From a virus (Duplodnaviria > Caudoviricetes), in IMG/VR virus record IMGVR_UViG_3300025070_000036, positions 1-58,245 of that record: a stretch of 58,245 bases of DNA; one strand, written 5' to 3'. The notes beneath the pieces were generated by a model that was given only the letters and a program-made list of their open reading frames with translations, searched no databases and was not told the DNA's origin. A program made the translations under genes and the position numbers. Below, in pieces: positions 8,451-35,389 of the stretch (its first letter is position 1; each line of letters begins with the position of its first letter).

Positions 8451-8453
8451 GAA

Positions 8454-10572: not shown

Positions 10573-10574
10573 AT

Positions 10575-11139: not shown

Positions 11140-11145
11140 GATGTA

Positions 11146-13626: not shown

Positions 13627-13637
13627 TGCTAATCCTT

Positions 13638-15203: not shown

Positions 15204-15777
15204 ATTCTTCGTTAATATCTATATCGTTCGGGGTCAAAACCACTGCATCTTCTACTTCAGGCTCTGGATTTACCAGTTTTGCAAGCTTGCTACGTAGTTT
15301 TTCTTTAATATCATCAGTGGTTTGGTGTGTAATCGTCACTTCGGACTTCTCTGTGAACAATCCCACGTCTGAAATCTTACCTAGAAGCTCTAATGCACGC
15401 ATTCGTACACGAGGATCAGGGTTTTCAGTCTCCATGACAAGCTTGTTGGTCACTAAATTGCGTAATTGCTTCGAAGATTCTACCACAGAGTGGTTAAATT
15501 CATCAATTATAGCACCTGTCATCTTAATAGAAGGGGGTGTTAGCTTTGCTGCACGCTTGTGTGTCACTTTTCGGGACGTTTTGTCGGGTTCTTGTGCAAA
15601 TGCGGTAGCCAAAACAGCGGCGACTTCCTTATCTCCCTCATCAGGAGTGGTGTCTAGCCCATGTTTCTCTAATTCTTCGACAGTTTTAGCCATCGCAACT
15701 GCACGATCTGGCAGATGTAACTGCTTTACTTCATCTTCTAAGGGTACACCCATCTCTGGGGTAAGATTCATTGTCAT
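15181..15777 (-). CDS. Probable terminase small subunit (start MTMNL at 15777; the track's 15837 start overlaps the promoter)
   Basis: First gene upstream of TerL; DPRVRMRALELLGKISDVGLFTEK. Confidence 0.6.
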   Translation of the reverse strand: MTMNLTPEMGVPLEDEVKQLHLPDRAVAMAKTVEELEKHGLDTTPDEGDKEVAAVLATAFAQEPDKTSRKVTHKRAAKLTPPSIKMTGAIIDEFNHSVVESSKQLRNLVTNKLVMETENPDPRVRMRALELLGKISDVGLFTEKSEVTITHQTTDDIKEKLRSKLAKLVNPEPEVEDAVVLTPNDIDINEEFGFDDDD

Positions 15778-15808
15778 AACACATCGCAGGTTGTTAACCG
15801 GTAACGTA

Positions 15809-15837
15809 ATAATAGGATACAAAAAATTTTTTATCAA
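15809..15837 (-). promoter_or_regulatory. sigma70-like promoter for the late arm, TTGATA-17-TATTAT
   Basis: Minus strand TTGATA aaaaattttttgtatcc TATTAT, 30 bp upstream of the TerS start. Confidence 0.55.
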
Positions 15838-15971
15838 GGGTTTTCAAAAAGGGGTGGGGGGTTTTCAAAAAATACAACTTTATTCATCCAGATTAGTAAT
15901 AATAGGTACATAGGAGTCCCGTTAACAGACAGCGGTGGGGTGGGGTAGGGTATGCCTTCGATATAACGTTT

Positions 15972-15989
15972 TTCGGGCAGTTGCCCGAA
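15972..15989. repeat. 18-bp palindrome copy 1 (TTCGGGCAGTTGCCCGAA)
   Basis: Read directly; in the divergent intergenic region. Confidence 0.95.
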
Positions 15990-16031
15990 TGGTATTTAAT
16001 GCTGTTTTGTTTGTTTTTATGGGTATACCTG

Positions 16032-16060
16032 TTGAATGGTGTAACATCTTATGGCATAAA
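16032..16060 (+). promoter_or_regulatory. Possible sigma70-like early promoter TTGAAT-17-CATAAA
   Basis: Correct spacing and a TGG before the -10 like the other early promoters; weak -10. Confidence 0.35.
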
Positions 16061-16113
16061 TAACTTATTGGAACGCCACAATGGATAGCCAAGGTTCTTG
16101 AAAGGAACATATT

Positions 16114-16746
16114 ATGTCAAAGACTACTAAAACAACTAAGACTACAGTAACCGCATTAGAAAAGCTTGGTGCAGGTGCAGAGACTATTGGAGCATTCGAA
16201 GCAGGCGCGTTGGTTAAGATAGGCCAAGCGGCAAAAGGGGCAGATGATGTTATCAACCCGCTAATTCAAACTATGTACACCAACGGAATACGTGCTAACG
16301 ATTGGAAAGCAAAAGCGGGATTGCCTGCAGGTTCTAAAATACCTGCTGAACATACTAAAGCTTACCAAGAGCGTCTTGCATTTTTTGGCCAAGGTGTTTG
16401 GAGCGTAGCAGATAAGGTGGCACTAAAACAGCCTGCACCAAAAGTAGGCGACTTCAAAACAAAAGGTGATTTTCTAGCGGCAAAAGCAGAACGCAAAGCA
16501 TTACAAGACAAACCATCAACCAAGATGAAAAACCTTGCAAAACGTTTTGCCACACTAGCCAAGAATGACCCCGATAACAAAGAGGTCAACGGTGCTAATG
16601 ACAAAGCGACGGCGATTGAAACACTAGGAAAGAAAATTGCAGAGTGTATTAAGTTACTACAAAGCGACCGACCATTTCCAGATACGTTTGAACATGATAT
16701 GGCATGTTCAACTCTAATCGCCTACAAAAATACATACATCAAATAA
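16114..16746 (+). CDS. First early gene; basic Ala/Lys-rich hypothetical protein
   Basis: AAAGGA RBS, 210 aa, own terminator; no recognisable family. Confidence 0.8.
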   Translation: MSKTTKTTKTTVTALEKLGAGAETIGAFEAGALVKIGQAAKGADDVINPLIQTMYTNGIRANDWKAKAGLPAGSKIPAEHTKAYQERLAFFGQGVWSVADKVALKQPAPKVGDFKTKGDFLAAKAERKALQDKPSTKMKNLAKRFATLAKNDPDNKEVNGANDKATAIETLGKKIAECIKLLQSDRPFPDTFEHDMACSTLIAYKNTYIK

Positions 16747-16753
16747 TACTACC

Positions 16754-16788
16754 AACCCCAGAGCCAAACGGTTCTGGGGTTTTTCTTT
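16754..16788 (+). terminator. Rho-independent terminator
   Basis: ACCCCAGAGCC-AAAC-GGTTCTGGGGT then TTTTCTTT. Confidence 0.85.
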
Positions 16789-16796
16789 GTCCAAAA

Positions 16797-17103
16797 TTCG
16801 GGCAGCTGCCCGAAACATTTGATACCAGTTCTCTATCAGCGGTACGCATTACATGTTGCATCTGCATACTGCATGTGATAGCAAGTCATTACATTGCACC
16901 ACAATGCCTCACTAGACCCACTTCGGTGGGTCTTTTTTTATTCGGGCAACTGCCCGAAAGTTATGATACCTGTTCCCAGAGTAGTGTTGCGCCTAACACG
17001 TTTAGTCATGTTCCAATGGGGTTTGCATATAAGATGTCACCATATTACACTTCGGGCAACTGCCCGAAACATTTGATACCAGTACCCAGAGTAGTGCTAC
17101 GCC
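16797..17103 (+). repeat. Three ~50-bp direct repeats (16797, 16941, 17051): palindrome copies 2-4 plus (ACATT)TGATACCWGTWCYC...
   Basis: TTCGGGCAGCTGCCCGAAACATTTGATACCAGTTCTC; TTCGGGCAACTGCCCGAAAGTTATGATACCTGTTCCCAGAGTAGTG; TTCGGGCAACTGCCCGAAACATTTGATACCAGTACCCAGAGTAGTG. Confidence 0.95.
16914..16939 (+). terminator. Rho-independent terminator inside the repeat cluster
   Basis: AGACCCAC-TTCG-GTGGGTCT then TTTTTT. Confidence 0.85.
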
Positions 17104-17105
17104 CC

Positions 17106-17341
17106 TAAGTCATTGAAAACAAACAAATGTTCCAAATGTTCCAAGCTTGTTCCAAGCAAATCGGGCGTAAGTCATTGAAAACAAACAAATGTTCCAATGT
17201 TCCAATAATATTTATATATATATACTCCTAAGTTTGGAGAGTAAGAGAGAGGGTCTCTGCCCTAAAAACCACTTCTCAGATTTAGACATATACCTTTGGA
17301 ACAAAGGAACTTTGGAACATTCTTTTAAAATCAATGGGTTA
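17106..17341. other. Putative replication origin: TGTTCCAA iterons, AT-rich tract, IHF-like sites
   Basis: 30-bp direct repeat at 17106 and 17168; TGTTCCAA at 17128, 17137, 17148, 17190, 17198; inverted at 17296, 17312; AT tract 17204-17224; AATCAATGGGTTA at 17329 matches WATCAANNNNTTR. Confidence 0.55.
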
Positions 17342-17410
17342 CATACATACACAACGTCACACGATGTCACAAAGCACCAATCACCACGAGACACCACAAT
17401 TCCCAATTAC

Positions 17411-17439
17411 TTGACATTGCCTACTATATGTGGTAATAT
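17411..17439 (+). promoter_or_regulatory. Strong sigma70 early promoter TTGACA-17-TAATAT with extended TG
   Basis: AATTAC TTGACA ttgcctactatatgtgg TAATAT. Confidence 0.8.
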
Positions 17440-17519
17440 GTTATATGGTTGATAGGTAACAGCCCAACCAAGTCCCAATACCAACGTTACCACTTCCATC
17501 TTTCATTTAACTTTAACCT

Positions 17520-17537
17520 TTCGGGCAACTGCCCGAA
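17520..17537. repeat. Palindrome copy 5, followed by GGAGA RBS and ATG 17554
   Basis: TTCGGGCAACTGCCCGAA tacatGGAGAtacactATG. Confidence 0.95.
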
Positions 17538-17553
17538 TACATGGAGATACACT

Positions 17554-17784
17554 ATGCAACAAACAGTAACAGCCAGAGGTTTCGCTTGGAACTCAAGCAC
17601 ACGTACGTATTCAAATGAGGTACGTTTCGAAGCCCCAAACCTAATCGCCGCCAAGCGGTGGGTTGAAAGTAAATATCTGCAACTCGAGAACTTATCCATA
17701 TTGCAGACAAATGAAGAGTATCTACTACAAAGCTTACTCCTTCATTCTCCCGTGCAAGCTGTAACAAATGAGGTGATCGAATGA
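17554..17784 (+). CDS. Hypothetical early protein (start MQQTV at 17554)
   Basis: GGAGA RBS; ATGA overlap with the next gene. Confidence 0.65.
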   Translation: MQQTVTARGFAWNSSTRTYSNEVRFEAPNLIAAKRWVESKYLQLENLSILQTNEEYLLQSLLLHSPVQAVTNEVIE

Positions 17785-17984
17785 GTAAGAATGTTTGCGA
17801 TTGCTGTGGCGATACATTCTCAGTGCGCCGCGCAAAACTTGGATACACAGTGTGTTTAGATTGCGGTGACAATCAGGCGCAAAGCCAACGTGCAAGTTGG
17901 TGCGTAGTACCGCTTCCCAAACAAGGCTATACACTCGCCACTCGTAAAGAAGATTTGTTGTATCTTAACCAAAAACCACGATAG
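17781..17984 (+). CDS. TraR/DksA-like C4 zinc-finger protein
   Basis: CDCCGDTFSVRRAKLGYTVCLDCG fits CxxCGxxIxxxR-x7-9-CxxC; GAGGTG RBS. Confidence 0.6.
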   Translation: MSKNVCDCCGDTFSVRRAKLGYTVCLDCGDNQAQSQRASWCVVPLPKQGYTLATRKEDLLYLNQKPR

Positions 17985-17990
17985 GAGATT

Positions 17991-18359
17991 GTGATGAAAT
18001 TCGAAAACTACAGTGTAGTGAAATGCCCTATGGGTATAGCTATCAAACCTAACAATGGTGACAGCGATTTAGAAGTGACCTTAACTATAGAAAATGATAC
18101 TCTATGTGTAACTTTGCACGCACACGATAATGATTGGTGTGGCCCTGACCACATCGTAAGTGAAATCCAACACCCAATCAAATCAGCCCACGACGAGCGT
18201 AAGGCTAAAGAAGAAGCTTCTCGCCAACGTATCCAACAGTTTAGCAAAGGTTATTACGATGGTTGGAACAGTGAAGATTTTAAATGTGACAAATGCGGTG
18301 AGCCGTTAGGAGCAGATGATCTTGATGAATGTGGTGATTGCCACGACAATACACAATAA
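17991..18359 (+). CDS. Hypothetical protein with C-terminal zinc ribbon and a scaffold-derived insert
   Basis: AGGAGA RBS; CDKCG...CGDC; HDERKAKEEASRQRIQQFSKGY insert. Confidence 0.7.
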   Translation: MMKFENYSVVKCPMGIAIKPNNGDSDLEVTLTIENDTLCVTLHAHDNDWCGPDHIVSEIQHPIKSAHDERKAKEEASRQRIQQFSKGYYDGWNSEDFKCDKCGEPLGADDLDECGDCHDNTQ

Positions 18360-18397
18360 TACACATAACAACGCGATATACCACAGAACTGAATTAC

Positions 18398-18426
18398 TTG
18401 ACATTCCTCGCTACCTGTGGTATATT
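18398..18426 (+). promoter_or_regulatory. Strong sigma70 early promoter TTGACA-17-TATATT with extended TG
   Basis: AATTAC TTGACA ttcctcgctacctgtgg TATATT; same context as the 17411 promoter. Confidence 0.8.
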
Positions 18427-18465
18427 ATATGTATGGGTCGAACACCCTGAATCTTTTCAAACCCT

Positions 18466-18483
18466 TTCGGGCAGATGCCCGAA
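18466..18483. repeat. Palindrome copy 6 with RBS header
   Basis: TTCGGGCAGATGCCCGAA caacaaacGGAGActactATG (18502). Confidence 0.95.
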
Positions 18484-18501
18484 CAACAAACGGAGACTAC
18501 T

Positions 18502-19485
18502 ATGACAGAACAAAATACGCAGATCGATATTGAAGACTATATCGCGTCCTCGATACACGACGAACTCAATTCTCAGAATACTGCCTCACAACAAAAAGCA
18601 CTCGCAGGGTTGATTACTGAAGCACCAAGTATATCTTCCGCGGCTATGATCGTTGACTTCAATGCTAGTGTATGGACAGCACGTAAGAAAGACATGAAAG
18701 CGTCCGACGATATTGCAGCTATGAATGGCGCTGATGTAGGTATCGCTGATGTACGTAAGAAGTTACTAGGTAACTGTGACGAGCTGATCGCAGTACAGAA
18801 GTTTGCGGCTAACGTACGCAACATACACTATAGTATGACATTACCTTGGTCGGACAATGGGTCTCGCCTACTGACCACGCAACAATACTTCAAGTACAAC
18901 GAAGTTATGAGCCAACTACAAACAGAGTTTCATACTCTTGTTGATAGTTTCTTACAGGCGTACCAATGGGAAGTATCCAAAGCGCAAGCCAAGTTGGGTG
19001 CTATGTTCAATCGTGACGAGTATCCGACAAGTGAAGCTTTGCAAGATAAGTTTCGGTTTCGTGTCTCGTACATACCGCTACCTGACAGTGGTGATTTCCG
19101 TATTGACATTGGCAACGAAGCCTTGGAACAAATACAATCCCAATATCAATCGCATTACACGCAAGCTATCAACTCAGCTATGTCTGATCTATGGCACAAG
19201 TTACATGATAACCTCGTAACACTTGTTCGACAACTCGACGTTAATGAAGAGGGCAAGGGCAATCGCTTGTATGATACTGTCTTTGATCGAGCTATCGAAC
19301 TGGTATCGATGTTGGGTACGTGTAACGTGACAGGCGACAGCCAAATGGAAGCCATGCGCAGAAAACTAGAAGATGCGTTCTATGGACTAAACCTTGATCA
19401 AATCAAGAACTCACCGAGCTTGCGTGAAGATACACGCAGTAAACTATCAGAAGCAATCGCCGCGCTACCAAGCTTGGATATGTAA
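18502..19485 (+). CDS. DUF3150-like helical protein (start 18502; the track gives 18475)
   Basis: SVWTARKKD...TLPWSDNGSRLL...EYPT...KFRF pattern; directly upstream of the AAA/VWA pair. Confidence 0.6.
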   Translation: MTEQNTQIDIEDYIASSIHDELNSQNTASQQKALAGLITEAPSISSAAMIVDFNASVWTARKKDMKASDDIAAMNGADVGIADVRKKLLGNCDELIAVQKFAANVRNIHYSMTLPWSDNGSRLLTTQQYFKYNEVMSQLQTEFHTLVDSFLQAYQWEVSKAQAKLGAMFNRDEYPTSEALQDKFRFRVSYIPLPDSGDFRIDIGNEALEQIQSQYQSHYTQAINSAMSDLWHKLHDNLVTLVRQLDVNEEGKGNRLYDTVFDRAIELVSMLGTCNVTGDSQMEAMRRKLEDAFYGLNLDQIKNSPSLREDTRSKLSEAIAALPSLDM

Positions 19486-19493
19486 TTTAACCT

Positions 19494-19511
19494 TTCGGGC
19501 AGTTGCCCGAA
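19494..19511. repeat. Palindrome copy 7 with RBS header
   Basis: TTCGGGCAGTTGCCCGAA caacaaacGGAGAaagactATG (19531). Confidence 0.95.
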
Positions 19512-19530
19512 CAACAAACGGAGAAAGACT

Positions 19531-20622
19531 ATGCACAACGCAACACAAATGTACGCACTAACCCTTGATCAGTGTGTCAAATCAATCGCCGCAGTGGGTA
19601 CTAAACGTACTATACTTATGCAAGGTGACATGGGTGGTGGCAAATCATCTACATTGCACACACTATCAGCGATGTTTCCTAACCATGTACCATGTTACTT
19701 TGATTGCACCACGAAAGACCTTGGTGACTTGAACTTACCTAACATGGCAGTGATGAATGAGAAGGGCTATGTTACCTTTGTACCTAACGAAGAACTAGGT
19801 GCGCACCTTGGCAAGCCTGTCATTATTATGATTGACGAACTAGGTAAAGCTAACCCTGCTGTTAAGAACGCACTCTTACGTGTGATGCAAGAACGTACAG
19901 TTGGTAGTATCAAGTTACACCCTGACAGTATTGTGTACGCCACAACGAACAAAGGTGCAGAAGGTGTGGGTGACTTGCTTCAACCACATGCACGTAATCG
20001 CATATCAACAGTGATTGTTCGCAAGACCGATCATATGGACTGGATTGAGTGGGGTATCAACAACAATATCGACCCTACTATACTTGGTTGGGTCAAAGAT
20101 AACCCGCAGTTGTTTGCCGCGTTCGAAGATGTAAAAGACCCGTCTGAGAACCCATACATATTCCACCCAAAAGAACAGCGAGCCGCGTTTGTTACACCTC
20201 GTTCATTACATGCGGCCTCTGACATCTTACACGTACGTGATCAATTCGACGACCAGACACTTACGGCTCTACTGATGGGTACTATCGGTGATCGCGGTGC
20301 GATGGACTTGATGGCGTTTGTGAAACTGGCTGATCAACTACCAAGCTTACAGTCTATCAAAGACGACCCGATGAATGCGATTGTTCCTAATAGTGCCGCC
20401 GCTGTGTGTATGGTTGTGTATCGTACACTTGCCGCGTTGGAAAGTACGTGGGTCAATGCGTGGATGGATTACATGCCTCGCCTCGATACAGAAGCACAAG
20501 GTATGTTCGCCAATGGTGTACGTGCGCCTAAGTATTCAAAGCAATCTATGGTTATGACTAACAAGAAATTTACCAAGTGGGCTATGGATAACAACTACAT
20601 GTTTGCCGCAGACAAGAAATAG
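19531..20622 (+). CDS. MoxR-like AAA+ ATPase
   Basis: Walker A GDMGGGKS, Walker B IIMIDE, sensor-1 ATTN, Arg finger NR, sensor-2 TPRS. Confidence 0.88.
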   Translation: MHNATQMYALTLDQCVKSIAAVGTKRTILMQGDMGGGKSSTLHTLSAMFPNHVPCYFDCTTKDLGDLNLPNMAVMNEKGYVTFVPNEELGAHLGKPVIIMIDELGKANPAVKNALLRVMQERTVGSIKLHPDSIVYATTNKGAEGVGDLLQPHARNRISTVIVRKTDHMDWIEWGINNNIDPTILGWVKDNPQLFAAFEDVKDPSENPYIFHPKEQRAAFVTPRSLHAASDILHVRDQFDDQTLTALLMGTIGDRGAMDLMAFVKLADQLPSLQSIKDDPMNAIVPNSAAAVCMVVYRTLAALESTWVNAWMDYMPRLDTEAQGMFANGVRAPKYSKQSMVMTNKKFTKWAMDNNYMFAADKK

Positions 20623-20632
20623 GAGAATGGAA

Positions 20633-21058
20633 ATGAGTAAATATAAACCGTGGACTGACGCAGATGATGCGGAACTGGTATTGATGCGCGAAGCACGCAC
20701 GCCAACGAAAGAAATCGCAATCGCATTGGGTCGAACACCCTCGGCTGTGATGAACCGTATAAGTGCAAAGGGTATACCCTATGGTAAGTTATACACAAAG
20801 GAACAACTAGAAGGTTTCTCACAAACTAAGGCGCGTGACCTAGAAGAACTTACGTTCCGTGAAGTTGTGGATACAGCGTTTGCCAAGCACGAGATCGAGT
20901 TTGGTGCGCCTGATAGAAAGTCCGAAGACCTTGAAAGGTCTAAGCCAAAGGCTGACACATATGGTTTCGGGCGGTTGCCCGAAATGCTTAATCAAATGGA
21001 AAGAGACATCAAGCGTAAACCACAATGGTTCAAAGCTATGATGTGGTGGAGGAAGTAA
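20633..21058 (+). CDS. GcrA/Myb-like N-terminal HTH DNA-binding protein (start MSKYKPW at 20633)
   Basis: WTDADDAELVLMREARTPTKEIAIALGRTPSAVMNR resembles the GcrA N-domain WTxERxxxL...IAxxLGxxxRNAV; AGGAGA RBS. Confidence 0.6.
   Translation: MSKYKPWTDADDAELVLMREARTPTKEIAIALGRTPSAVMNRISAKGIPYGKLYTKEQLEGFSQTKARDLEELTFREVVDTAFAKHEIEFGAPDRKSEDLERSKPKADTYGFGRLPEMLNQMERDIKRKPQWFKAMMWWRK
20966..20983. repeat. Palindrome copy 8 (one mismatch), inside the HTH gene
   Basis: TTCGGGCGGTTGCCCGAA, encoding FGRLPE. Confidence 0.9.
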
Positions 21059-21059
21059 C

Positions 21060-22340
21060 ATGTTATCAATAGGTAAAACACTTACACCCGAACAGCGGTT
21101 ATCGAAAGCCGTTGTTGACATCATGGGTAAAGCCCATGCGTTGTCTGGTGTTATTATGATCGGTGATCGTAGTATCGAATACAATGAAGATAAAGTACCA
21201 ACAGCTTGCACTAATGGACGTGACGAGTGGTATGGTGCTAAGTTTATTGAACCGCTAAACGATGCGCAACTAAGGTTTCTTGTGCTACATGAAGTGTATC
21301 ACAAACTGTATCGACATCTGACAACGTGGCAACACCTGTACAGAATACACCCACAGTTGGCTAACATCGCGTGTGATTATGTAATCAACGTGAAGATCAT
21401 GGACGAGTTCAGCGAGAATGGTTGGGTCGAGATGATCGAAGGTGGTTGCTACGATGTGAAATATCGTGGGTGGGATGCCGCCAAGGTATTCTGGGAACTA
21501 CACAAGCAGTTACAAAAACCACCCCGGGGTGGCGGTGGTTCGGGTTCACCTGATAACGAAGCACAAGATGGTGATGGAACTACCCCTGAGCATTCAACTG
21601 GTTTAGAAAACACAGGAGTAGGTGATCTACCCCAAGGGTTCGATGCGCATGATTGGGACGGTGCGGAAGAAATGACCGCAGACGAACAGCGTGAACTTGC
21701 TCGAGAGATCGACGAAGCAGTACGCCAAGGTGCATTGGTTGCAGGTAAGATGGGTAGCGGTGGTAGCCGTGACCTAGAAGAATTGCTACAACCCAAAGTG
21801 GATTGGCGCGAAGTGTTGCGTGAGTTTGTGCAAGATACATGTGCAGGGTCTGACTATTCAACATGGAAGAAACCAAACAGACGCTATCTAAGCTCTGGCA
21901 TATACATGCCTACTGGTATCAGTGAACAAGTAACATGTTTAGCAGAACACAATGACATGTCTGGTTCAATCGGTGCGCGTGAGCAACAGATAATGATTAG
22001 TGAATTGGTCGGTATCTGTGAAACGGTCAAGCCAGAAGAACTACACGTAAGTTACTGGGACACCGAAGTGACTGGGTATGAGAGGTATGACAACCACGAA
22101 CTACATACAGTGGCAGAACGTACCACACCTGTAGGTGGCGGCGGTACATGTGTTGAATGTGTGCCTGAGTACATGAAGAAAAACAATATCAATCCACAAG
22201 CGTCTATCGTGTTTACAGATGGTGATTTGTATGGCGGTTGGGGCGAGTGGGATCACCCTGTGTTGTGGGTGATTGTCGATAATGAAGGCGCACAGCCTAC
22301 ACATGGTAAAGCGTTACACGTATCCTCGGGAGATTTGTGA
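21060..22340 (+). CDS. Metallopeptidase-VWA protein (DUF2201-like)
   Basis: PTACTNG, HEVYH zincin motif, NIACDYVIN; MIDAS DMSGS...GGGGT...FTDG. Confidence 0.85.
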   Translation: MLSIGKTLTPEQRLSKAVVDIMGKAHALSGVIMIGDRSIEYNEDKVPTACTNGRDEWYGAKFIEPLNDAQLRFLVLHEVYHKLYRHLTTWQHLYRIHPQLANIACDYVINVKIMDEFSENGWVEMIEGGCYDVKYRGWDAAKVFWELHKQLQKPPRGGGGSGSPDNEAQDGDGTTPEHSTGLENTGVGDLPQGFDAHDWDGAEEMTADEQRELAREIDEAVRQGALVAGKMGSGGSRDLEELLQPKVDWREVLREFVQDTCAGSDYSTWKKPNRRYLSSGIYMPTGISEQVTCLAEHNDMSGSIGAREQQIMISELVGICETVKPEELHVSYWDTEVTGYERYDNHELHTVAERTTPVGGGGTCVECVPEYMKKNNINPQASIVFTDGDLYGGWGEWDHPVLWVIVDNEGAQPTHGKALHVSSGDL

Positions 22341-22531
22341 TGAGCAAGATTGGTAACTATGTAGTAGGACTACAGGAGCAAGAGGTGGACGAGCTAGAGC
22401 AGATGTTAGATGATGTATTCTACAAAACATTTGGTCGTCGTCCCCTCAAGGGTGAAGAACTCAAAAAGCTACAGCGTCGTACCTACATGCCCGAGCTAGA
22501 TGATGATGGTAAGTTTCGGAGGGAAGAATGA
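22337..22531 (+). CDS. Hypothetical protein
   Basis: GGAGA RBS; overlaps with both neighbours. Confidence 0.6.
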   Translation: MMSKIGNYVVGLQEQEVDELEQMLDDVFYKTFGRRPLKGEELKKLQRRTYMPELDDDGKFRREE

Positions 22532-22770
22532 CCTTCTGGCACATGCTCATAATATCTTACGCAGTCATACCTGACAGCGGTGTGTTTATCACAAAGGAAT
22601 ACGTGTACAAAGATTACCACACATGTATCCAAGCAAGTGATGAAATGTACCCTGCAATATACGCCACGTACAAAGACAGCATGGCAAGTTGCGTAAAGAC
22701 GAGTCTTATATCTGGTGGTTTGAAGCCACGGTTAAGACCTAAAAACTTAGGGGGCAATCGCGCAAGATAA
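22528..22770 (+). CDS. Small hypothetical protein, hydrophobic N-terminus, two Cys
   Basis: ATGA overlap; MTFWHMLIISYAVIP. Confidence 0.6.
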   Translation: MTFWHMLIISYAVIPDSGVFITKEYVYKDYHTCIQASDEMYPAIYATYKDSMASCVKTSLISGGLKPRLRPKNLGGNRAR

Positions 22771-22862
22771 GTATCGAAACAACAGACTGCCCGTGTGCGG
22801 TTTAAACAGATACTCATCTTGCTTGCCCCTTATAAACAACCTGACAAATACGTCAATAAACT

Positions 22863-22880
22863 TTCGGGCATCTGCCCGAA
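22863..22880. repeat. Palindrome copy 9 with RBS header
   Basis: TTCGGGCATCTGCCCGAA caacaaatGGAGAataactATG (22900). Confidence 0.95.
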
Positions 22881-22899
22881 CAACAAATGGAGAATAACT

Positions 22900-23964
22900 A
22901 TGACTATGGTATACACAAATTTTAAATCTTTCGCGGAAGTGGAGGCACACTACGACAGTATCAAACCACTGGTATCAAAGTGTCACCCACGCGAACAAGA
23001 CATTCGACCCATCGGAGATCGCAAACGAAAACACGAACGTATTAAAAAGATCAATCGTAATTGCTACGTGATGATGGACGGGTACTACAGCGGTGATGAT
23101 GTGTTTCGTTGGTGGTTTCTTAATAAAGACACCGCGATAAACATAACCGAGAAAGAGCTTATTAGGTTAGCTCCTATCGTGTGGCGTAGACACAAGGACG
23201 GTACAGAAACTGTCAAGTTTCGTAATGGTACAGGCCAAGGTCTACACAATGGTAGGTACTCGTTCATAAGACGTAATACACCTAGTGGTATGTACTTTAA
23301 TATATCCAATGGTAAACAGTTTGTTAATGGAGTGTATCTCGCAAAAGGTAGCTCAATCACCAAAGATGATTACACCAGAAAACCTGACGATAGTGGTTAT
23401 GGAAGTTGGTGGCAATCTTACGTGAAGGAATGTACATACCGTGATGATGGGTGTGCTGTTACGTTTAAACTGGTAAAAGTAGATGGTCGAATTGCGCCAG
23501 ATTGGGAAGTAGTAACTGGCGGTAAGCCGTTACCCAAACCACCTAGACAAGTAGTGGACAAGAAAGCAAAGGCTTCTTTGAAAGATCACATAGTTAAGTT
23601 CCGTGAATGGGGTATGACTATGTATCCGATGTTACCAAAAGATACGTACGAGTACGAACAACGTATGCGTAACGAGACCAAAGAATACGTAGCGGATAGA
23701 ATGGGTAACCCTCATTACTATGCTTGGAGTTTACTAAGTATCTTTCTTGATCACCCTACAATCACACGCGAGATTGTAAAAGATGAACAACACCCACTAC
23801 GTCTGCACTTAGCGTATGGTATATTATCAGATTACATGGAGCATACCCTACGTATGGGTGAAGAACAGGGCTTAGACGACAAAGAGATACAGGCAAGAAT
23901 AATGTCTGCATTCAACCATAAAATCAATCGCACATGCGGTTTCTTATCAACAGTGAAAGGTTAA
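22900..23964 (+). CDS. Hypothetical early protein (start 22900; the track gives 22795)
   Basis: RBS header; long ORF with no recognised family. Confidence 0.8.
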   Translation: MTMVYTNFKSFAEVEAHYDSIKPLVSKCHPREQDIRPIGDRKRKHERIKKINRNCYVMMDGYYSGDDVFRWWFLNKDTAINITEKELIRLAPIVWRRHKDGTETVKFRNGTGQGLHNGRYSFIRRNTPSGMYFNISNGKQFVNGVYLAKGSSITKDDYTRKPDDSGYGSWWQSYVKECTYRDDGCAVTFKLVKVDGRIAPDWEVVTGGKPLPKPPRQVVDKKAKASLKDHIVKFREWGMTMYPMLPKDTYEYEQRMRNETKEYVADRMGNPHYYAWSLLSIFLDHPTITREIVKDEQHPLRLHLAYGILSDYMEHTLRMGEEQGLDDKEIQARIMSAFNHKINRTCGFLSTVKG

Positions 23965-23968
23965 AACA

Positions 23969-24892
23969 ATGGGTTATAAACATAAGACAGTAGCGGAAGC
24001 TACAGTGGAGAGTGAAGAGTACGTCGAACGTTCGCGTAGGTATAATCAGCCTACTCAGGGAAAACCAGAACTTGTAGAATTTCGAACGGCTATCGAGAAC
24101 AACCACATCAAGACTATGCACCGTACTGCAAACACAGCATACGTATACATTGAAGGTGAACAGATGGTGCTTGGTTGGATTGGCTATGGAGACTTTCAGT
24201 CTACAATAAGTGGTGCTGATAAGTATGTAGTATATGCAAGAAACATACGTAACATGCGACACGTCGAAGGGACAGATGAATACTTCATGCGTTCAGCACT
24301 ACGTTTAGATAAAGCTATCAAGAACTGTAAGGCCAACTTGATACGGTATACCTCGGAGGAAACGGGTTGTGCATTGGCAAGGCAACCCAAACGAGATTTT
24401 GCAAGGTTATCCCGTGAAGCTGATGAAGCGTACATGGAGGTGCGACGAAACATTGGGTTGGTAGATAGGACAAATACCGAACTGGGTTTGGAGCTTATAA
24501 CATTAGTAAAAAATGGTTACGTGTTCAGACAACCAGAGCTTCACGAGAACATAAGTAAGCTATCGCACTTGAAAGATCAGTACAACAAACACTCAAGAAA
24601 CAACCCACGCCCTATGGACTTTGTGCGTATATACAAAAACCCACGCGAAGAGTTACGTGCTGACGTAGTAAAACTTGTTAACGTGAATGCGTATACCTCA
24701 TGGTCTGATAACAAACCGGTAGCGGATAGGGTATCGGGTAAAGATATGTACCTCGCGGAAACACTACCCGAAAGTATCTTAGGTAAGATTGCAGTTATGG
24801 CTATGTGTGAAGACGGGCAGTTTGTTGAAGACGTTGGCTACAAGGTTGACGACACTATGTTCTACTTCTACCCAGAAGAACCTACTACGTGA
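23969..24892 (+). CDS. Hypothetical protein
   Basis: 307-aa ORF; C-terminal LPESILGKIAVM...VEDVGY resembles the next gene. Confidence 0.8.
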   Translation: MGYKHKTVAEATVESEEYVERSRRYNQPTQGKPELVEFRTAIENNHIKTMHRTANTAYVYIEGEQMVLGWIGYGDFQSTISGADKYVVYARNIRNMRHVEGTDEYFMRSALRLDKAIKNCKANLIRYTSEETGCALARQPKRDFARLSREADEAYMEVRRNIGLVDRTNTELGLELITLVKNGYVFRQPELHENISKLSHLKDQYNKHSRNNPRPMDFVRIYKNPREELRADVVKLVNVNAYTSWSDNKPVADRVSGKDMYLAETLPESILGKIAVMAMCEDGQFVEDVGYKVDDTMFYFYPEEPTT

Positions 24893-25140
24893 GTGTGCTT
24901 GGCGATATAACGTATCACGTACAGATACATAAGCATACTAAACACGTCAATGTATCATCAATAGGTATCGACAGGGTTGACTCGGATGTTTTGCATCACT
25001 ACAATTCTGTAGACGAGCTACCCGAATGGATACAAACTAAGCTGTCGATGCTTATGATGTTAGACCTACCACCTCCACTAAACGATGTGGATGGTGTGGG
25101 TAGTAGGCTAGGCCAGTACACTTACTGGATATATAAATAA
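24889..25140 (+). CDS. Hypothetical protein, resembles the C-terminus of the preceding protein
   Basis: GTGA overlap; DELPEWIQTKLSMLMM...VDGVGSR. Confidence 0.7.
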   Translation: MSVLGDITYHVQIHKHTKHVNVSSIGIDRVDSDVLHHYNSVDELPEWIQTKLSMLMMLDLPPPLNDVDGVGSRLGQYTYWIYK

Positions 25141-25143
25141 CCT

Positions 25144-25161
25144 TTCGGGCAACTGCCCGAA
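25144..25161. repeat. Palindrome copy 10 with RBS header
   Basis: TTCGGGCAACTGCCCGAA actggtatcaacGGAGAattactATG (25185). Confidence 0.95.
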
Positions 25162-25184
25162 ACTGGTATCAACGGAGAATTACT

Positions 25185-25523
25185 ATGACCCCAGAAGCAA
25201 AAGTTAAAAAGACCGCTGTAAAACATCTGAAAGATATAGGTGCTTACTATTTCTTTCCTGCCACTGGTGGCTACGGCAAAAGCGGTGTACCCGACATCAT
25301 AGCATGTTACCAAGGATTATTCTTTGGACTTGAATGCAAAGCAGGCAAGAATACGCCTACACCTCTGCAAGAGAAAAACTTGAAAGAGATCAACGAAGCA
25401 GGTGGGTTTGACTTAGTCGTACACGAAGAAAACGTACACCAACTGTCTCTGCAAATGGATAAATGGGTAACTATCTGTAACAATACCAACGTAATACCCC
25501 AAGCTGTGAGTGGGCGCGATTGA
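25185..25523 (+). CDS. VRR-NUC nuclease / Holliday junction resolvase-like
   Basis: TPEAKVK...GVPDII...GLECKAG...TPLQ...AGG. Confidence 0.85.
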   Translation: MTPEAKVKKTAVKHLKDIGAYYFFPATGGYGKSGVPDIIACYQGLFFGLECKAGKNTPTPLQEKNLKEINEAGGFDLVVHEENVHQLSLQMDKWVTICNNTNVIPQAVSGRD

Positions 25524-25680
25524 CATAGTTCGCATAAACCTCAGCAGTATGGGCAGGACACTCCAATTTCTGTTTGTAATTCAGCAGAAACCTTTCAAGA
25601 CCTGTGACCATACCGACTAGGCCACGTACGGCTAGTCCTATACTCTGCGTATGGGCATTAAATTAAAGGAGATCACATAC

Positions 25681-25866
25681 ATGACGCGTGAAGAAGCCGA
25701 AGACAACTATCGAATAAAGTGGGAGAAACAAATAAAAAAAGATATGGCAGATAACTCTGCACTACGTGCGAGACAAAGACCTATTAGACCCCTCGGTGCA
25801 AGCCAAGAAGGTGGGTCTAAAGGAGGCAAAGCAAATAAGAAAAGACCTTATGTCTCTATCCGTTAG
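25681..25866 (+). CDS. Small basic hypothetical protein (start 25681)
   Basis: AAGGAG RBS before ATG 25681; GGSKGG. Confidence 0.55.
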   Translation: MTREEAEDNYRIKWEKQIKKDMADNSALRARQRPIRPLGASQEGGSKGGKANKKRPYVSIR

Positions 25867-26035
25867 TCACTGCCCTCACTGTGTTAGGAAGTTAGAAGTA
25901 ATAGATTCACGTCCACACTTTGCTTATGGCTTTCCAACAGTAAGACGTAGGCGTGCGTGTACTAAATGTGATTTTAAAATAACAACCATAGAGTTACCGA
26001 TAGAACTAGGTAACGAAATCTTTGAAGATGAATAG
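25850..26035 (+). CDS. Stand-alone NrdR-like zinc ribbon (no ATP cone)
   Basis: CPHC...VIDSR...VRRRRACTKCDFKITTIE matches the NrdR N-terminus CPxC..VxDSR..IRRRRxCxxCxxRFTTxE. Confidence 0.75.
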   Translation: MSLSVSHCPHCVRKLEVIDSRPHFAYGFPTVRRRRACTKCDFKITTIELPIELGNEIFEDE

Positions 26036-26044
26036 GAGAACAAC

Positions 26045-26473
26045 ATGAAAAAATCAAAAGCAGATAAAATCTGGGCTTATAAAATAGCAAACCCATCAGC
26101 TACAAACAGAGAGGTAGCTAACGCATCTGGTGCGCACGTTACGTATGTTGCATCGCTTATGCGTAAGACAGGTACGCCCAAAGAAATACTGGAAGCACCA
26201 AAGTCGCCTAAACGTGGTGACATCTTAGACACTGCTAAAGAATACGTGACTAAAGATCGTGCATCTGATCACGGGGATATGGAAGATAACTTTGAGATGA
26301 TTGCAGATTTTTGGTCAACGTATTTAGATAGGCGTATAGTGGCATATGACGTGGGTGCTATGATGGCGTTATTAAAAGTAGCGCGTATTAGATCAAACCC
26401 TAAACACCCTGACAACTGGGTCGATGGTGCAGGGTACATGGCATGTGGTGGTGAGATTGCAGGTAAACGCTAA
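26045..26473 (+). CDS. N-terminal HTH-like region plus DUF6378-like domain
   Basis: DRASDHG...NFEMIADFW...MMALLKVAR...DNWVDGAGY; AGGAGA RBS. Confidence 0.7.
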   Translation: MKKSKADKIWAYKIANPSATNREVANASGAHVTYVASLMRKTGTPKEILEAPKSPKRGDILDTAKEYVTKDRASDHGDMEDNFEMIADFWSTYLDRRIVAYDVGAMMALLKVARIRSNPKHPDNWVDGAGYMACGGEIAGKR

Positions 26474-26475
26474 AC

Positions 26476-28305
26476 ATGGATTTAATCACACTGGATTTTG
26501 AAACCTATTACGATAAAGATTATTCTTTAAGTAAGATAACTACTGAAGCTTATGTCCGTGACCCTCGTTTTGAGACCGTGGGCGTAAGCGTAAGACTTAA
26601 CAACGGAAAAACGGAGTGGGCTAGTGGTACGCATGAACAGATCAAGAAATACCTCAACACGTTCCCTTGGGATACGTCTATGTTACTTTGTCATAACACT
26701 ATGTTCGATGGTGCTATTCTTGATTGGCGTTATAATATTCGCCCTCGCATGTATACCGATACTTTGTGTATTGCCCGTGCTTTACACGGGGTGGAAGCTC
26801 GTTCAAACCTCGCATCGCTTGCTGAAAGGTATAAGATCGGTAAGAAGGGGACAGAAGTTCTCGACGCACTCGGAAAGCAACGTGCAGATTTTACACCCGA
26901 AGAACTAAGTGCGTACGGGGATTACTGTATCAATGATGTAGAGTTAACCTATAAGCTGTTTAGTATAATGGCACGTAACTTTCCCAAATCTGAATTACGT
27001 TTGATTGACCTGACACTACGCATGTTTACACAACCAACGTTAGAGTTAGATGATGACCTACTAATATCACACCTTAGTGACGTTAAAGCACGTAAGGATA
27101 AGTTGTTAGTAGATGCAGGTATTGATGATAAAAAAGACCTGATGTCCAACCCCAAGTTCGCTGAACTACTTAAAGGGCTTGGCGTAGAACCTCCCATGAA
27201 AATAAGCGCAACCACAGGTAAAGAGACACATGCGTTTGCAAAGTCAGACGAAGGATTTAAAGCATTACTCGAACACGAAAACCCAAAGGTAAAGTCTTTA
27301 GTAGAAGCACGTCTGGGTAACAAGTCTAGTCTTGAAGAGACACGTACACAGAGGTTTATAGACATATCCCAGCGTGGGCTTCTACCCGTACCTGTAAAAT
27401 ATTATGCCGCGCACACCGGACGTTGGGGTGGTTCAGATAAGATCAATCTACAAAACCTACCTAGCCGTGGTGCGAATGGTAAGAAGTTAAAGAGTAGTAT
27501 AGTAGCACCCGAAGGACACACGCTGATTGATTGCGATAGTTCTCAGATCGAAGCTCGCGTGCTTGCATGGTTGGCAGGGCAAACCGATTTAGTTGCACAG
27601 TTCGCGGCAGGTGAAGACGTGTACAAATATATGGCGTCTAGCATATACTCAGTTTCAGTTAAGAACGTTACCAAAGATCAAAGGTTTGTGGGTAAGACTA
27701 CAATTCTGGGTGCAGGGTACGGCATGGGGGCTGTAAAGTTCCAAGCGCAGTTACAAGGGTTTGGTGTTTACATTGAGCTTGATGAAGCACGCCGTATCAT
27801 AGAAATATATCGTGGCACTAATGGAGCTATAAGCCAGTTATGGCGTGACGCTAACAACATGGTGCAGTACATGGCACGCGGAGATAGCATACAGTTTGGC
27901 AAAGAAGGTGTCTTGCAAGTAGACGCACGCAAGAACGCTATCATTTTACCTAATGGTCTACCTATGTTTTATCATGGCTTGGCGGCTGAACGCGGAGAGC
28001 GCGGGTATGAGTATACATACCGAACAAGAAAAGGCCCGAACCGTATATACGGGGGTAAGGTTGTGGAGAACGTATGCCAAGCTATAGCTCGCTGTATCAT
28101 AGGGCATCAAATGATACTCCTTGCCAAGAGGTACAAGGCTGTGTTAACTGTACATGACTCGATTATTACCTGTGTTCCTGACGAAGAGTTGGTTGAAGCA
28201 CAAGCGTACATGGAAGAGTGTATGAGCCAAACGCCTGATTGGGCAAAAGGTTTACCTATAACCTGTGAGAGTGGCACAGGCAAATCATATGGAGAATGTG
28301 AGTGA
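26476..28305 (+). CDS. polA: Family A DNA polymerase with 3'-5' exonuclease; Leu at the 762-equivalent position
   Basis: ExoI DFET, ExoII HNTMFD, ExoIII YCINDV, HTGRW, motif A DSSQIEAR, motif B RFVGKTTILGAGYG, motif C VHDS. Confidence 0.95.
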   Translation: MDLITLDFETYYDKDYSLSKITTEAYVRDPRFETVGVSVRLNNGKTEWASGTHEQIKKYLNTFPWDTSMLLCHNTMFDGAILDWRYNIRPRMYTDTLCIARALHGVEARSNLASLAERYKIGKKGTEVLDALGKQRADFTPEELSAYGDYCINDVELTYKLFSIMARNFPKSELRLIDLTLRMFTQPTLELDDDLLISHLSDVKARKDKLLVDAGIDDKKDLMSNPKFAELLKGLGVEPPMKISATTGKETHAFAKSDEGFKALLEHENPKVKSLVEARLGNKSSLEETRTQRFIDISQRGLLPVPVKYYAAHTGRWGGSDKINLQNLPSRGANGKKLKSSIVAPEGHTLIDCDSSQIEARVLAWLAGQTDLVAQFAAGEDVYKYMASSIYSVSVKNVTKDQRFVGKTTILGAGYGMGAVKFQAQLQGFGVYIELDEARRIIEIYRGTNGAISQLWRDANNMVQYMARGDSIQFGKEGVLQVDARKNAIILPNGLPMFYHGLAAERGERGYEYTYRTRKGPNRIYGGKVVENVCQAIARCIIGHQMILLAKRYKAVLTVHDSIITCVPDEELVEAQAYMEECMSQTPDWAKGLPITCESGTGKSYGECE

Positions 28306-28970
28306 CAAAAGTAGCACCGTGGTCTTTCAGTAAGATTAAAGCATTTGAGCAATGCCCCAAGCAATTCTACCATGACAAGATACTCAAAGAGTTCCCGTTT
28401 AAAGAGACAGATGCTACCCTGTATGGAACAGCTTTTCACAAAGCCGCAGAAGATTTTATTGGTAAGGACACTCCTCTACCTAAGAAGTTTAGCTTTGCGG
28501 AAGAGGCACTGGTATCGCTGAAAAACCGCACAGGCGAAAAACTATGCGAAATAAAACTAGGTATAAACTCTGATTTAGAAGCATGTGATTTCTACGCCAA
28601 AGATGTTTGGTTTCGTGGTATCGCTGACTTAGTTATACTGGACGGTGATCTCGCATGGGTAGTAGATTACAAGACAGGCAAGTCTTCTAAGTATGCAGAC
28701 AAAGGACAGCTAGAGTTAATGGCGTTGGGTTTGTTTGCTAAGTACCCCCAAATTAAGACTGTACGTGCAGGGTTATTTTTTGTTGTATGTAATGACTTGG
28801 TAAAAGACACATACATGGAGTATGATAGCCATAAGCTGTGGGGGAAATGGTTAAGTAAGTACGACCAGATGAAGGCCGCGGCTGAAAACGATGTGTGGAA
28901 CGCACGGCCTAACGGCTTATGCAGACGACACTGCCCTGTAATTGAATGTGTTCACAATGGAGCAAATTAA
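28302..28970 (+). CDS. PD-(D/E)XK exonuclease (RecB/Cas4-like)
   Basis: SFSKI..FEQCP, GTAFH, RGIADL, VDYKTGK, QL, C-terminal Cys cluster. Confidence 0.85.
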   Translation: MTKVAPWSFSKIKAFEQCPKQFYHDKILKEFPFKETDATLYGTAFHKAAEDFIGKDTPLPKKFSFAEEALVSLKNRTGEKLCEIKLGINSDLEACDFYAKDVWFRGIADLVILDGDLAWVVDYKTGKSSKYADKGQLELMALGLFAKYPQIKTVRAGLFFVVCNDLVKDTYMEYDSHKLWGKWLSKYDQMKAAAENDVWNARPNGLCRRHCPVIECVHNGAN

Positions 28971-29242
28971 TGCCATATAAAAATCCCAAAGATCGTAAGA
29001 AACAAAAGAATGCACCTGTAGGTAGTAAGGCGTTTGAGGCACGTATGGAACGGCAACGCGCCAGACGTAAGGTAGATAAGAATGGTGTAGATAAAAACAA
29101 AAACGGTAAAGCCGACAAACGTGAAGGTAAAGATGTTAGTCACAAGAAAGCCTTGTCCAAGGGTGGGTCTAACAAAGATGGTATACGTATAGAAAGTTCA
29201 AGTAAGAACCGCGCACGTAACTATAAAAAGAAGAAAAAATAG
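28970..29242 (+). CDS. Small basic HNH-like protein (start 28970)
   Basis: GKDVSHKKALSKGGSN...SSKNRARN; TAATG coupling. Confidence 0.6.
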   Translation: MPYKNPKDRKKQKNAPVGSKAFEARMERQRARRKVDKNGVDKNKNGKADKREGKDVSHKKALSKGGSNKDGIRIESSSKNRARNYKKKKK

Positions 29243-29260
29243 TTCGGGCAACTGCCCGAA
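29243..29260. repeat. Palindrome copy 11, between the stop codon and the helicase RBS
   Basis: TAG TTCGGGCAACTGCCCGAA AGGAGA actaa GTG (29272). Confidence 0.95.
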
Positions 29261-29271
29261 AGGAGAACTAA

Positions 29272-35345: not shown

Positions 35346-35389
35346 CCCCCGACTGGCTAGGTTTCGCACTGCAACGTCGGGGGTTTTTT
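35346..35389 (+). terminator. Terminator at the convergence of the two arms
   Basis: CCCCCGAC...GTCGGGGG then TTTTTT; 22-nt internal segment. Confidence 0.65.

Follow-up and report, generated by a model that had tools for sequence, protein, structure and literature searches.

Mutually exclusive types of palindrome at set places along the early arm in a phage clade

What is a short palindrome for when a phage carries eleven nearly identical copies of it along one arm of its genome? The question is raised by a contig of the class Caudoviricetes (IMG/VR record IMGVR_UViG_3300025070_000036), analysed here over its whole length of 58,245 bases and called the window; its completeness rating is 95%. 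All copies of the element, TTCGGGCA-NN-TGCCCGAA, lie within positions 15972-29260, on the rightward early arm. The initial annotation had offered three readings of it: an operator for a dimeric protein, an RNA hairpin serving each cistron, or an anchor for recombination. We find that the palindrome belongs to a clade-wide system of mutually exclusive types at fixed early-arm positions. With slightly less than even confidence, we suggest that these palindromes are double-stranded DNA sites for a symmetric, type-specific factor controlling the early arm.

One palindrome type per genome

A pattern search recovered exactly the eleven copies first listed, with their centres as written; ten are exact, and the copy at 20966 has a single mismatch (A8 to G). 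No further match with two or fewer mismatches exists in the 58,245 bases. In dinucleotide shuffles (n=100) the mean was 0.02 copies and eleven were never reached, which rules out a chance origin. The late genes are free of the motif, as had been claimed: neither minus-strand late block (1-15837 and 35388-58245) holds a copy, and the sole core-like 12-mer, at 39408, is mismatched and lacks the outer arms.

Scanning viral contigs for the exact pattern gave at least 113 stretches, 110 of which align to the window at 70-98% nucleotide identity. Together with the window, these 110 loci hold 297 exact copies, a count biased upward because the loci were fetched by the exact pattern, and 40 copies with one to three mismatches. 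All 323 copies with up to two mismatches in the relatives map to window positions 15838-29300; the aligned late DNA (210 kb) and the aligned right part of the early arm (179 kb) have none. The scan of related genomes that had been proposed at the outset thus finds the motif in at least 110 relatives, confined to the left early arm. Among the matches listed from bacterial genomes, all 120 stretches were single motif occurrences, which is about the chance level (estimated at ~140 per 596 billion bases); in these listed genomes, then, it does not behave as a multicopy element.

Lineages were sampled through the SNF2 helicase, by taking the best 80 of 571 relatives (72-98% amino-acid identity) and reading the gap 5' of the gene. 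The window's own palindrome, type A, was present in only 6 of the 78 relatives' gaps read. Types were tallied over the 77 relatives with an SNF2 protein of at least 450 residues plus the window, giving 78 rows: seven of type A (TTCGGGCA-NN-TGCCCGAA), four of type B (TTTAGGGA-NN-TCCCTAAA), one of type C (TTTACGGA-NN-TCCGTAAA), 11 of type D (GTTAGTG-NNN-CACTAAC), two of type F (GTTAGTAC-NN-GTACTAAC) and three of type G (GTAGTGA-N-TCACTAC). Type E (GTTAGTCA-NN-TGACTAAC) was seen in no SNF2 gap and was found elsewhere in one locus (L293). The gap also held a few variant palindromes, and 43 of the 78 rows had no perfect palindrome. Total length stays within 15-18 bp across the types.

Each type recurs within its own genome, at the same gaps between a stop codon and a ribosome-binding site (RBS) that the other types occupy. 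A complete 62-kb type D genome (G001) has seven exact copies between its positions 302 and 15666, up to the SNF2 start, and none with one mismatch; type D copies stand there at places orthologous to window copies 8, 9, 10 and 11. A type B genome (G005) has eleven copies, whose centres, AA or TT, occur in either orientation (7 and 4). The type B control region is homologous to that of the window, including its units of terminator, palindrome and GATACCAGTA, and the palindrome alone is replaced; the flanks of copy 1 are likewise homologous in G005, with a B-type palindrome in place. Only a single type was present in 72 of the 73 loci with two or more copies. The exception (L039) has one perfect B copy (146-163) and six A-like copies (600-2323), four of them with one or two mismatches, and may be either a chimera of assembly or a recombinant caught in transition.

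Types A and B are intermixed both on the SNF2 tree (quick IQ-TREE search) and on the PolA tree (FastTree), and a swap can be precise. A type B locus (L247) and a type A locus (L076) are collinear and 92.4% identical over 7,094 bases; at a site that they share, the flanks are identical and the palindrome differs at 7 of 18 positions, namely three symmetric pairs plus the centre. Their proteins are 95.4% (PolA), 98.2% (nuclease), 100% (a 98-amino-acid basic protein), 96.7% (SNF2), 99.2% (Gam-like protein), 100% (HTH_17 protein) and 96.6% (SSB) identical. The clade amounts to a natural experiment, with related contigs in the hundreds and seven or more mutually exclusive types at orthologous positions, and genome pairs that differ almost only in site type make the question of what reads the sites a testable one.

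Rhizobium phage RHph_TM3_14A (MN988472.1, L118) has the gene order of the window and a PolA 38% identical to it, and carries GTTACC-N6-GGTAAC in 12 perfect copies (37 with two or fewer mismatches), mostly on the early arm. About half of the copies lie inside annotated open reading frames (ORFs) and a few in leftward genes; in seven, the end is 2-6 nt short of a start codon, with Shine-Dalgarno bases in the loop and the 3' arm. A repeated coding motif, ..AMGAMLLLG.. (direct-repeat families D1, D2, D5 and D7), recurs in the small early ORFs of this phage, which suggests that its tiny early genes arose by paralogous expansion. In Pseudomonas phage KPP25, a repeated palindrome is absent.

Proposed double-stranded DNA sites and rival readings

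The centre of the palindrome had been called free, and this proved wrong. Among the 297 exact copies the counts are AC 69, CC 50, TC 47, GG 44, GA 37, GT 24, GC 21 and TG 5, and eight dinucleotides (AA, AT, AG, CA, CG, CT, TA and TT) never occur. The classes AC/GT, CC/GG, TC/GA and GC, and likewise the eight absent dinucleotides, are each closed under reverse complementation, and the site as double-stranded DNA can therefore be written TTCGGGCAG-D-TGCCCGAA, in either orientation. Upstream of rightward genes both orientations are used (166 NC, 105 GN and 21 GC). The centre differs between loci that share identical flanks, and a relative in two RNA-library assemblies has TC in place of the window's GT at 15980-15981; centre classes are shared by 241 of 522 pairs within a locus (0.46) versus 4031 of 14013 between loci (0.29). 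A sequencing artefact (GGC plus inverted repeat) was considered for the G/C rule at the centre and rejected in view of the AA and TT centres of type B and the CG-rich three-base centres of type D.

Whether the arms show covariation or strict identity depends on the level of comparison: within a type they are invariant, and between types they change in compensating pairs. Over 13 distinct 18-mer rows (types A, B, C, E and F, two variants and the Rhizobium phage), seven of eight arm pairs have changed on both sides and none on one side only, an absence that is partly built in since perfect palindromes were chosen.

Four of the window's copies lie in non-coding DNA, copy 1 between divergent gene blocks and copies 2-4 at the heads of three tandem units, and the remaining seven precede gene blocks. 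Within 17452-29272, palindromes fill nearly all rightward intergenic gaps of about 35 nt or more, the other junctions being overlaps or gaps of a few bases. We confirmed that GGAGA follows six copies (17520, 18466, 19494, 22863, 25144 and 29243) at a distance of 1-12 nt. The longer header reported for three copies is indeed common to those at 18466, 19494 and 22863, as CTTTCGGGCANNTGCCCGAACAACAAAYGGAGA and ACTATG, although 2-3 nt rather than 3-4 nt separate the two. At the gene-head copies no T run follows the palindrome on the sense strand, the RBS being 1-12 nt on. Of 215 non-redundant copies from the window and from relatives, 139 have a start codon behind them, preceded by a Shine-Dalgarno word. 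A strong sigma-70-like promoter stands within 110 nt upstream of 32 of 203 non-redundant copies, compared with 0-5 of 203 at shifted controls, and its -10 box mostly ends 37-53 nt before the palindrome; the promoter type at window positions 18398-18426 also precedes palindromes in relatives.

In the tandem array each unit consists of the palindrome, six bases and then GATACC(A/T)G. Copies 2 and 3 start 15 and 7 nt past the stems of two strong predicted intrinsic terminators, T1 and T2. Among relatives, 21 of 24 non-identical tandem units begin directly behind a T run, a layout also found in the type B genome; the spacings of 144/146 and 110 bp are kept, and the third copy, an exception to the two-way orientation of the centre, has AC in the unit-3 rows listed.

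The operator reading of the initial annotation is the one of its three that the comparative data favour, because the arms are invariant, the centre is closed under reverse complementation, each genome has one type and two copies stand behind terminators. What has been observed is how the sites are laid out, that they come in types, that the constraint on them is symmetric and that types are swapped precisely; a protein reader, its origin in the phage and an action on transcription are inferred. We put DNA before RNA because the arms are invariant within each type while true hairpins nearby, namely the terminators and a second hairpin beside the 25144-class site, vary in sequence among relatives with pairing kept. 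The strand-symmetric centre, the copies behind terminators, the loss of hairpin energy in other types and the intragenic copies of the Rhizobium phage are further reasons.

A mechanism of the following kind would fit. The palindromes mark the left 13 kb of the rightward early and replication arm, four of them lying in a non-coding control region and seven heading tightly packed gene blocks in the gap between stop codon and RBS, with some block-head copies 30-45 nt past the expected start of a sigma-70-type promoter. The factor that reads them would most likely have two-fold symmetry, presumably as a dimeric protein, and come from the phage itself. Once bound, this factor may act on host RNA polymerase moving along the arm, either blocking or silencing it or lifting such a block, in the manner of stoperators. 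Each lineage keeps its own palindrome, with all copies alike. A side effect, partly shown by our comparisons, would be that the linkers between palindrome and RBS serve as junctions for the gain and loss of early genes.

Several observations weigh against this proposal. The symmetric compensatory change of arm pairs is also what an RNA or DNA hairpin would be expected to display. The copies are tied to translation starts and not to promoters: among the 215 non-redundant sites, a start codon follows the palindrome by 10-26 nt in 119 and a stop codon ends no more than 2 nt before it in 70, and a strong promoter, where there is one, has its -10 box ending 15-80 nt upstream, with no overlap between site and promoter. 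One type per genome could result partly from linkage or copy-to-copy conversion and not from selection. The contigs are metagenomic, and many of the loci are near-copies of one another. Above all, the search for a reader found none: no conserved early protein separates type A from type B, the seven early proteins from PolA through SSB being 95-100% identical between L247 and L076 and the TerS of the type B genome falling within the type A range. The segment at 26.2-33.3 kb is thereby excluded, which leaves the left early arm and the late genes as places for a reader. On the left arm, however, proteins vary too much among type A genomes to suit a site that does not change (median identity 31% for ORF 16114, 52% for ORF 17189 and 42% for ORF 17554), and the gene for the helix-turn-helix (HTH) protein at ORF 20603 is absent from a type A locus (L007).

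In the light of these results, none of the four proteins first named as candidate binders fits. ORF 16114 is hypervariable among genomes with the same palindrome; the HTH protein (20603/20633) is missing as just described; ORF 26045 has no match at E 1e-4 in several palindrome-bearing type D loci; and the HTH_17 protein of ORF 31257 is 100% identical between type A and type B contigs. Other candidates gained no support either: TerS for lack of A/B separation, ORFs 22900 and 23969 as hypervariable within type A, with atlas leads at chance level, and a 61-amino-acid zinc-ribbon protein (25850-26035, +) as found only in the two closest relatives, L109 and L048. We take the last to resemble the zinc-ribbon DNA-binding domain of NrdR, without the ATP cone.

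A bolder reading is one that we consider rather unlikely. It holds that the palindromes are a lineage 'barcode', with one 15-18 bp type per genome at set early-arm positions and precise replacement within DNA that is 92-95% identical, that the clade consists of uncultured marine podovirus-like phages, and that the reader is none of the conserved early proteins. If this were true, a small, fast-switching specificity factor of a new kind might set incompatibility or immunity-like groups in lytic phages, resembling the co-evolution of repressor and stoperator without lysogeny. Alternatively, the copies might need only to match each other through DNA or RNA pairing; complementary centres (AC and GT) allow a perfect 18-bp duplex between copies.

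Among the rivals of the DNA-site reading, RNA hairpins heading cistron blocks survive best, although we think them unlikely. Such hairpins would protect processed ends, insulate the RBS or bind a translational regulator, and the symmetry of the DNA would be merely the trace of a stem. The way in which the element fills the gap between stop codon and RBS suits this idea, as do the copies behind strong promoters, which therefore lie in 5' leaders, the stable type A stem (-11.2 kcal/mol predicted), the compensating arm changes and the seven Rhizobium phage copies that carry Shine-Dalgarno bases just before a start. However, the stem is invariant within a genome and the loop occurs in either orientation; known hairpin-binding proteins read RNA the opposite way. 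Centres closed under reverse complementation are not predicted by constraint at the RNA level, and the predicted energy drops to -4.5 kcal/mol in types F and G. Two copies stand directly behind intrinsic terminators, where little transcript is expected, and about half of the Rhizobium phage copies are intragenic, with a few in leftward genes. Among one-mismatch type A variants on the sense strand, G-U changes (4) are no commoner than A-C changes (4). Rfam has no family for the palindrome or the tandem units (one weak match elsewhere had E 0.73), and no conserved fold was seen inside the units: RNAalifold, run on 24 and on 12 units, pairs only successive palindromes and the terminator, and a structured RNA gene was accordingly rejected there. 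The hairpin proposal of the initial annotation is thus weakened by energy, centre symmetry and terminators, and it retains the coupling to RBS and stop codon and the compensating arm changes.

We regard as improbable the view that palindrome and RBS form a portable linker of the PeSL kind, through which co-infecting relatives exchange early genes and copies are kept uniform by conversion. Ends of segments at least 85% identical do lie near the motif about twice as often as random places do (7.7% versus 3.0% within 30 nt and 20.5% versus 9.1% within 100 nt, over 375 clustered ends), the control being random places, with gene boundaries as such uncontrolled. One locus (L005), compared with another (L086), has an extra gene exactly behind palindrome, RBS and ATG, with a second RBS-like junction at its other side. 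Loci have the upstream flank, palindrome and RBS in common and diverge beyond them, flanks (TTAACT, CAACAAAYGGAGA) are also alike within a genome, and centre classes are shared more often within a locus than between loci. The recombination anchors first suggested therefore keep a modest breakpoint excess and one example of gene gain, but about 80% of segment ends are more than 100 nt from any copy. The junction in L005 falls at RBS/ATG microhomology and not in the palindrome. Moreover, recombination needs neither a palindrome nor a fixed size of 15-18 bp nor a constrained centre, and it leaves unexplained both the non-coding tandem array with its kept spacing and the right early arm, which is equally mosaic and free of copies.

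Extruded DNA hairpins or cruciforms, acting in priming or replication restart, as substrates of the VRR-NUC/Hjc-like nuclease or as hairpin promoters of the N4 kind, are very improbable. In their favour, the constraint is strand-symmetric, an iteron-like field with an AT-rich core adjoins the tandem copies, and four proteins common to the window and RHph_TM3_14A (the VRR-NUC-like nuclease, DUF927 primase-helicase, AAA ATPase and DUF2201 protein) were not found in KPP25, which has no repeated palindrome. Against them, the arms, at 6-8 bp, are short for cruciforms, junction nucleases are not known to be specific for sequence and so leave the palindrome types unexplained, the same nuclease gene also occurs in relatives without repeated palindromes, a hairpin promoter needs a fixed orientation while the centre flips between near-identical loci, and for an N4-type promoter no RNA polymerase was detected among the ORFs scanned, the 2241-amino-acid protein matching only polyvalent-protein and DarB-like families and nothing among PDB sequences.

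Described repeat systems and the meaning of types

Of the systems in the literature, the repeat of Cluster O mycobacteriophages comes closest. This 17-bp element, TGTTCGG-NNN-CCGAACA, occurs in more than 30 copies throughout the genome, about a third of them in coding sequence; in their account of it, the authors predict a dimeric DNA-binding protein, describe the protein and the function of the repeat as unknown, and note few or no rearrangements at the repeats (PMC4351075). Both systems have many copies with invariant inverted arms around a short, variable and unoriented centre, many of them intergenic, in phages that are not obviously temperate. They differ in that the Cluster O repeats, as described, are unlinked to start codons, whereas the palindromes here are confined to the left arm and mostly abut an RBS. 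Mutually exclusive lineage types, as seen here, are not part of that description of Cluster O, and we imply no sequence homology.

The action proposed above is modelled on the stoperators of Cluster A mycobacteriophages. Per genome there are 20-30 intergenic sites, mostly outside promoters, and sites bound by the repressor block elongation; according to the account consulted, the consensus is lineage-specific and differs between heteroimmune phages (PMC6550527). That account gives the stoperator as a 13-bp asymmetric site oriented with transcription (PMC6550527), in contrast to the palindrome here, whose centre takes either orientation. Stoperators also belong to temperate phages with a known repressor, while the 58 ORFs scanned in the window include no integrase or repressor and we saw no co-varying partner.

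The SAS and ESAS elements of Cluster K mycobacteriophages lie in the non-structural half of the genome, directly before the start codons of unrelated genes, and their function is given as unknown in the section describing them (PMC3203893). SAS, a 13-mer without symmetry, includes the Shine-Dalgarno bases and is found 3-7 bp before the start, always in the same orientation; ESAS consists of imperfect 17-bp repeats with a 4-13 bp spacer, and its consensus, by the same description, differs between subclusters (PMC3203893). Here, by comparison, a perfect, compact palindrome stands upstream of the RBS and is found in a tandem array of non-coding DNA as well. The PeSL cassettes of T4-like phages combine a terminator-like stem-loop with an early promoter at indel and replacement junctions of early plastic regions, as far as the account at hand describes them (PMC4122927). 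They resemble our sites as short, conserved, intergenic stem-loop motifs at gene-exchange junctions in an early region. The palindrome, however, has no T run and no following promoter (promoters are upstream, at only 32 of 203 sites), and its breakpoint enrichment is only about two-fold, with one worked example.

Many near-identical sites read by one known DNA-binding protein are also found in the conserved inverted repeats of Streptomyces phage phiC31, the C1 operators of P1 and parS bound by ParB. The protein is known in those systems, whereas the ORFs scanned here yielded nothing resembling ParB or a repressor. Within limited literature searches, we found no description of this motif, and among the titles listed for KPP25, RHph phages or Kochitakasuvirus none concerned repeats.

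Were the sites to decide which phages are able to share early-gene cassettes or regulators and which are not, they would be relevant to recombination and competition among abundant marine phages. Even if they proved to be ordinary mRNA hairpins, the types would offer a clear example of short viral elements evolving in concert.

Features and gene content of the window

The copies and the signals around them are collected in Table 1.

Table 1. Palindrome copies, terminators and promoters of the window, in order of position
Feature	Position	Strand	Centre	Setting
Copy 1	15972..15989		GT	non-coding gap between leftward terminase genes and first rightward gene
Terminator T1 (intrinsic)	16754..16781	+		12-pair stem and T run, after ORF 16114-16746
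Copy 2	16797..16814		GC	15 nt past T1 stem; heads tandem unit 1; GATACCAG at 16821-16828
Terminator T2 (intrinsic)	16914..16933	+		8-pair stem and seven T
Copy 3	16941..16958		AC	from end of T2 T run; heads tandem unit 2; GATACCTG at 16965-16972
Copy 4	17051..17068		AC	tandem unit 3, 110 nt past copy 3; GATACCAG at 17075-17082
Sigma-70-like promoter	17411..17439	+		TTGACA-17-TAATAT with TG; 80 nt 5' of copy 5
Copy 5	17520..17537		AC	GGAGA 5 nt on, ATG 17554
Sigma-70-like promoter	18398..18426	+		TTGACA-17-TATATT with TG (11/12); 39 nt 5' of copy 6
Copy 6	18466..18483		GA	GGAGA 8 nt on, ATG 18502 (DUF3150-like protein)
Copy 7	19494..19511		GT	GGAGA 8 nt on, ATG 19531 (AAA ATPase)
Copy 8 (one mismatch)	20966..20983		GT	in frame within ORF 20603-21058; 76 nt before DUF2201 gene (21060)
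Copy 9	22863..22880		TC	GGAGA 8 nt on, ATG 22900; orthologous type D copy in G001
Copy 10	25144..25161		AC	then CTGGTATC (25163-25170), GGAGA, ATG 25185 (VRR-NUC/Hjc-like nuclease)
Copy 11	29243..29260		AC	abuts TAG stop of ORF 28946-29242; 1 nt before AGGAGA; last of arm

Copy 8 lies inside a gene, where it reads FGRLPE within the HTH ORF 20603-21058 (+). In relatives the HTH proteins are about 100 amino acids long and lack the FGRLPE stretch, the C-terminal tail KP.WW..MMWWRK being common to both, and the copy therefore seems to be located in an insertion inside the coding sequence. Its counterpart in the type D genome G001 stands after the HTH gene, about 100 nt before the DUF2201 gene. Behind copy 11, the SNF2 helicase starts at GTG 29272, and the type of site in this gap differs by lineage.

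The GATACCAG box of the tandem units also stands inverted between copy 10 and its RBS (as CTGGTATC, 25163-25170); the box is conserved in type A and type B genomes and occurs once without a palindrome in G005 (L325). Neither this GATACC box nor the interior of the palindrome fits a sigma-70 promoter, and sigma-54, sigma-28 and sigma-E promoters do not fit, in comparisons made by eye with the consensus sequences. Many relatives (such as L016, L022, L075 and L007, and G001 at 8824) have a second GC-rich hairpin between the 25144-class palindrome and the RBS, of a sequence that differs by locus (GGGGTGG...CCACCCC, GCGAGGC...GCCTCGC and others); the window has none.

An iteron-like field at 17129-17319 adjoins the tandem copies. 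It holds five direct GTTCCA repeats (17129, 17138, 17149, 17191 and 17199), the first three bracketed by two copies of TAAGTCATTGAAAACAAACAAAT, an AT-rich run at about 17205-17232 and three inverted GGAAC(A) repeats (17298-17319). The hexamer varies among relatives (GTACCA, GTTACA and GTTCCA) within a constant layout, the type B genome included. To judge from this arrangement, the field looks like an origin or a second operator array, and the overlapping ORF 17189-17452 is unlikely to be a gene.

Public sequencing runs in which the window stretch occurs are marine metagenomes. Its early arm appears at 90-99% likeness in two metatranscriptome runs, in which DNA carry-over is possible; this evidence comes from Logan contigs, and contig ends near some palindromes were kept out of the evidence. 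By megablast against GenBank phages there was no close cultured relative, the best protein match being 38% identical.

Families were scanned in 58 ORFs, with eleven right-hand late ORFs at 51063-58243 outside the scan, and this set gave no match to an RNA polymerase, integrase or repressor family. Encoded in the rightward block (16.1-35.1 kb) are the AAA ATPase, the small HTH protein, a DUF2201/VWA metallopeptidase-like protein, DNA polymerase I, a PD-(D/E)XK nuclease, the SNF2 helicase, the HTH_17 protein, an SSB-like protein and a DUF927 primase-helicase, together with the DUF3150-like protein (ORF at 18502), which is below the Pfam cut-off, and the VRR-NUC/Hjc-like nuclease (ORF at 25185), a weak match. 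The same block holds a 67-amino-acid ORF (17781-17984, +) with an N-terminal C-x2-C ... C-x2-C zinc-finger stretch, which had no Pfam match at E 0.01 and which we take to resemble the C4 finger of TraR/DksA, although the finger here is N-terminal; it is kept in type A (60-76% identity), in type D (53%) and, judging from the DNA, in the type B genome.

Products of the leftward blocks are terminase, portal, capsid, SU10-type adaptors, a GroES-like protein and the 2241-amino-acid polyvalent protein. The last (35388-42113, -) has an LPD39 domain and a DarB-like C-terminal part. The GroES-like Cpn10 gene (10575-10985, -) adjoins the portal region, and the two SU10-type adaptor genes (2819-3448 and 4010-4699, -) are paralogous.

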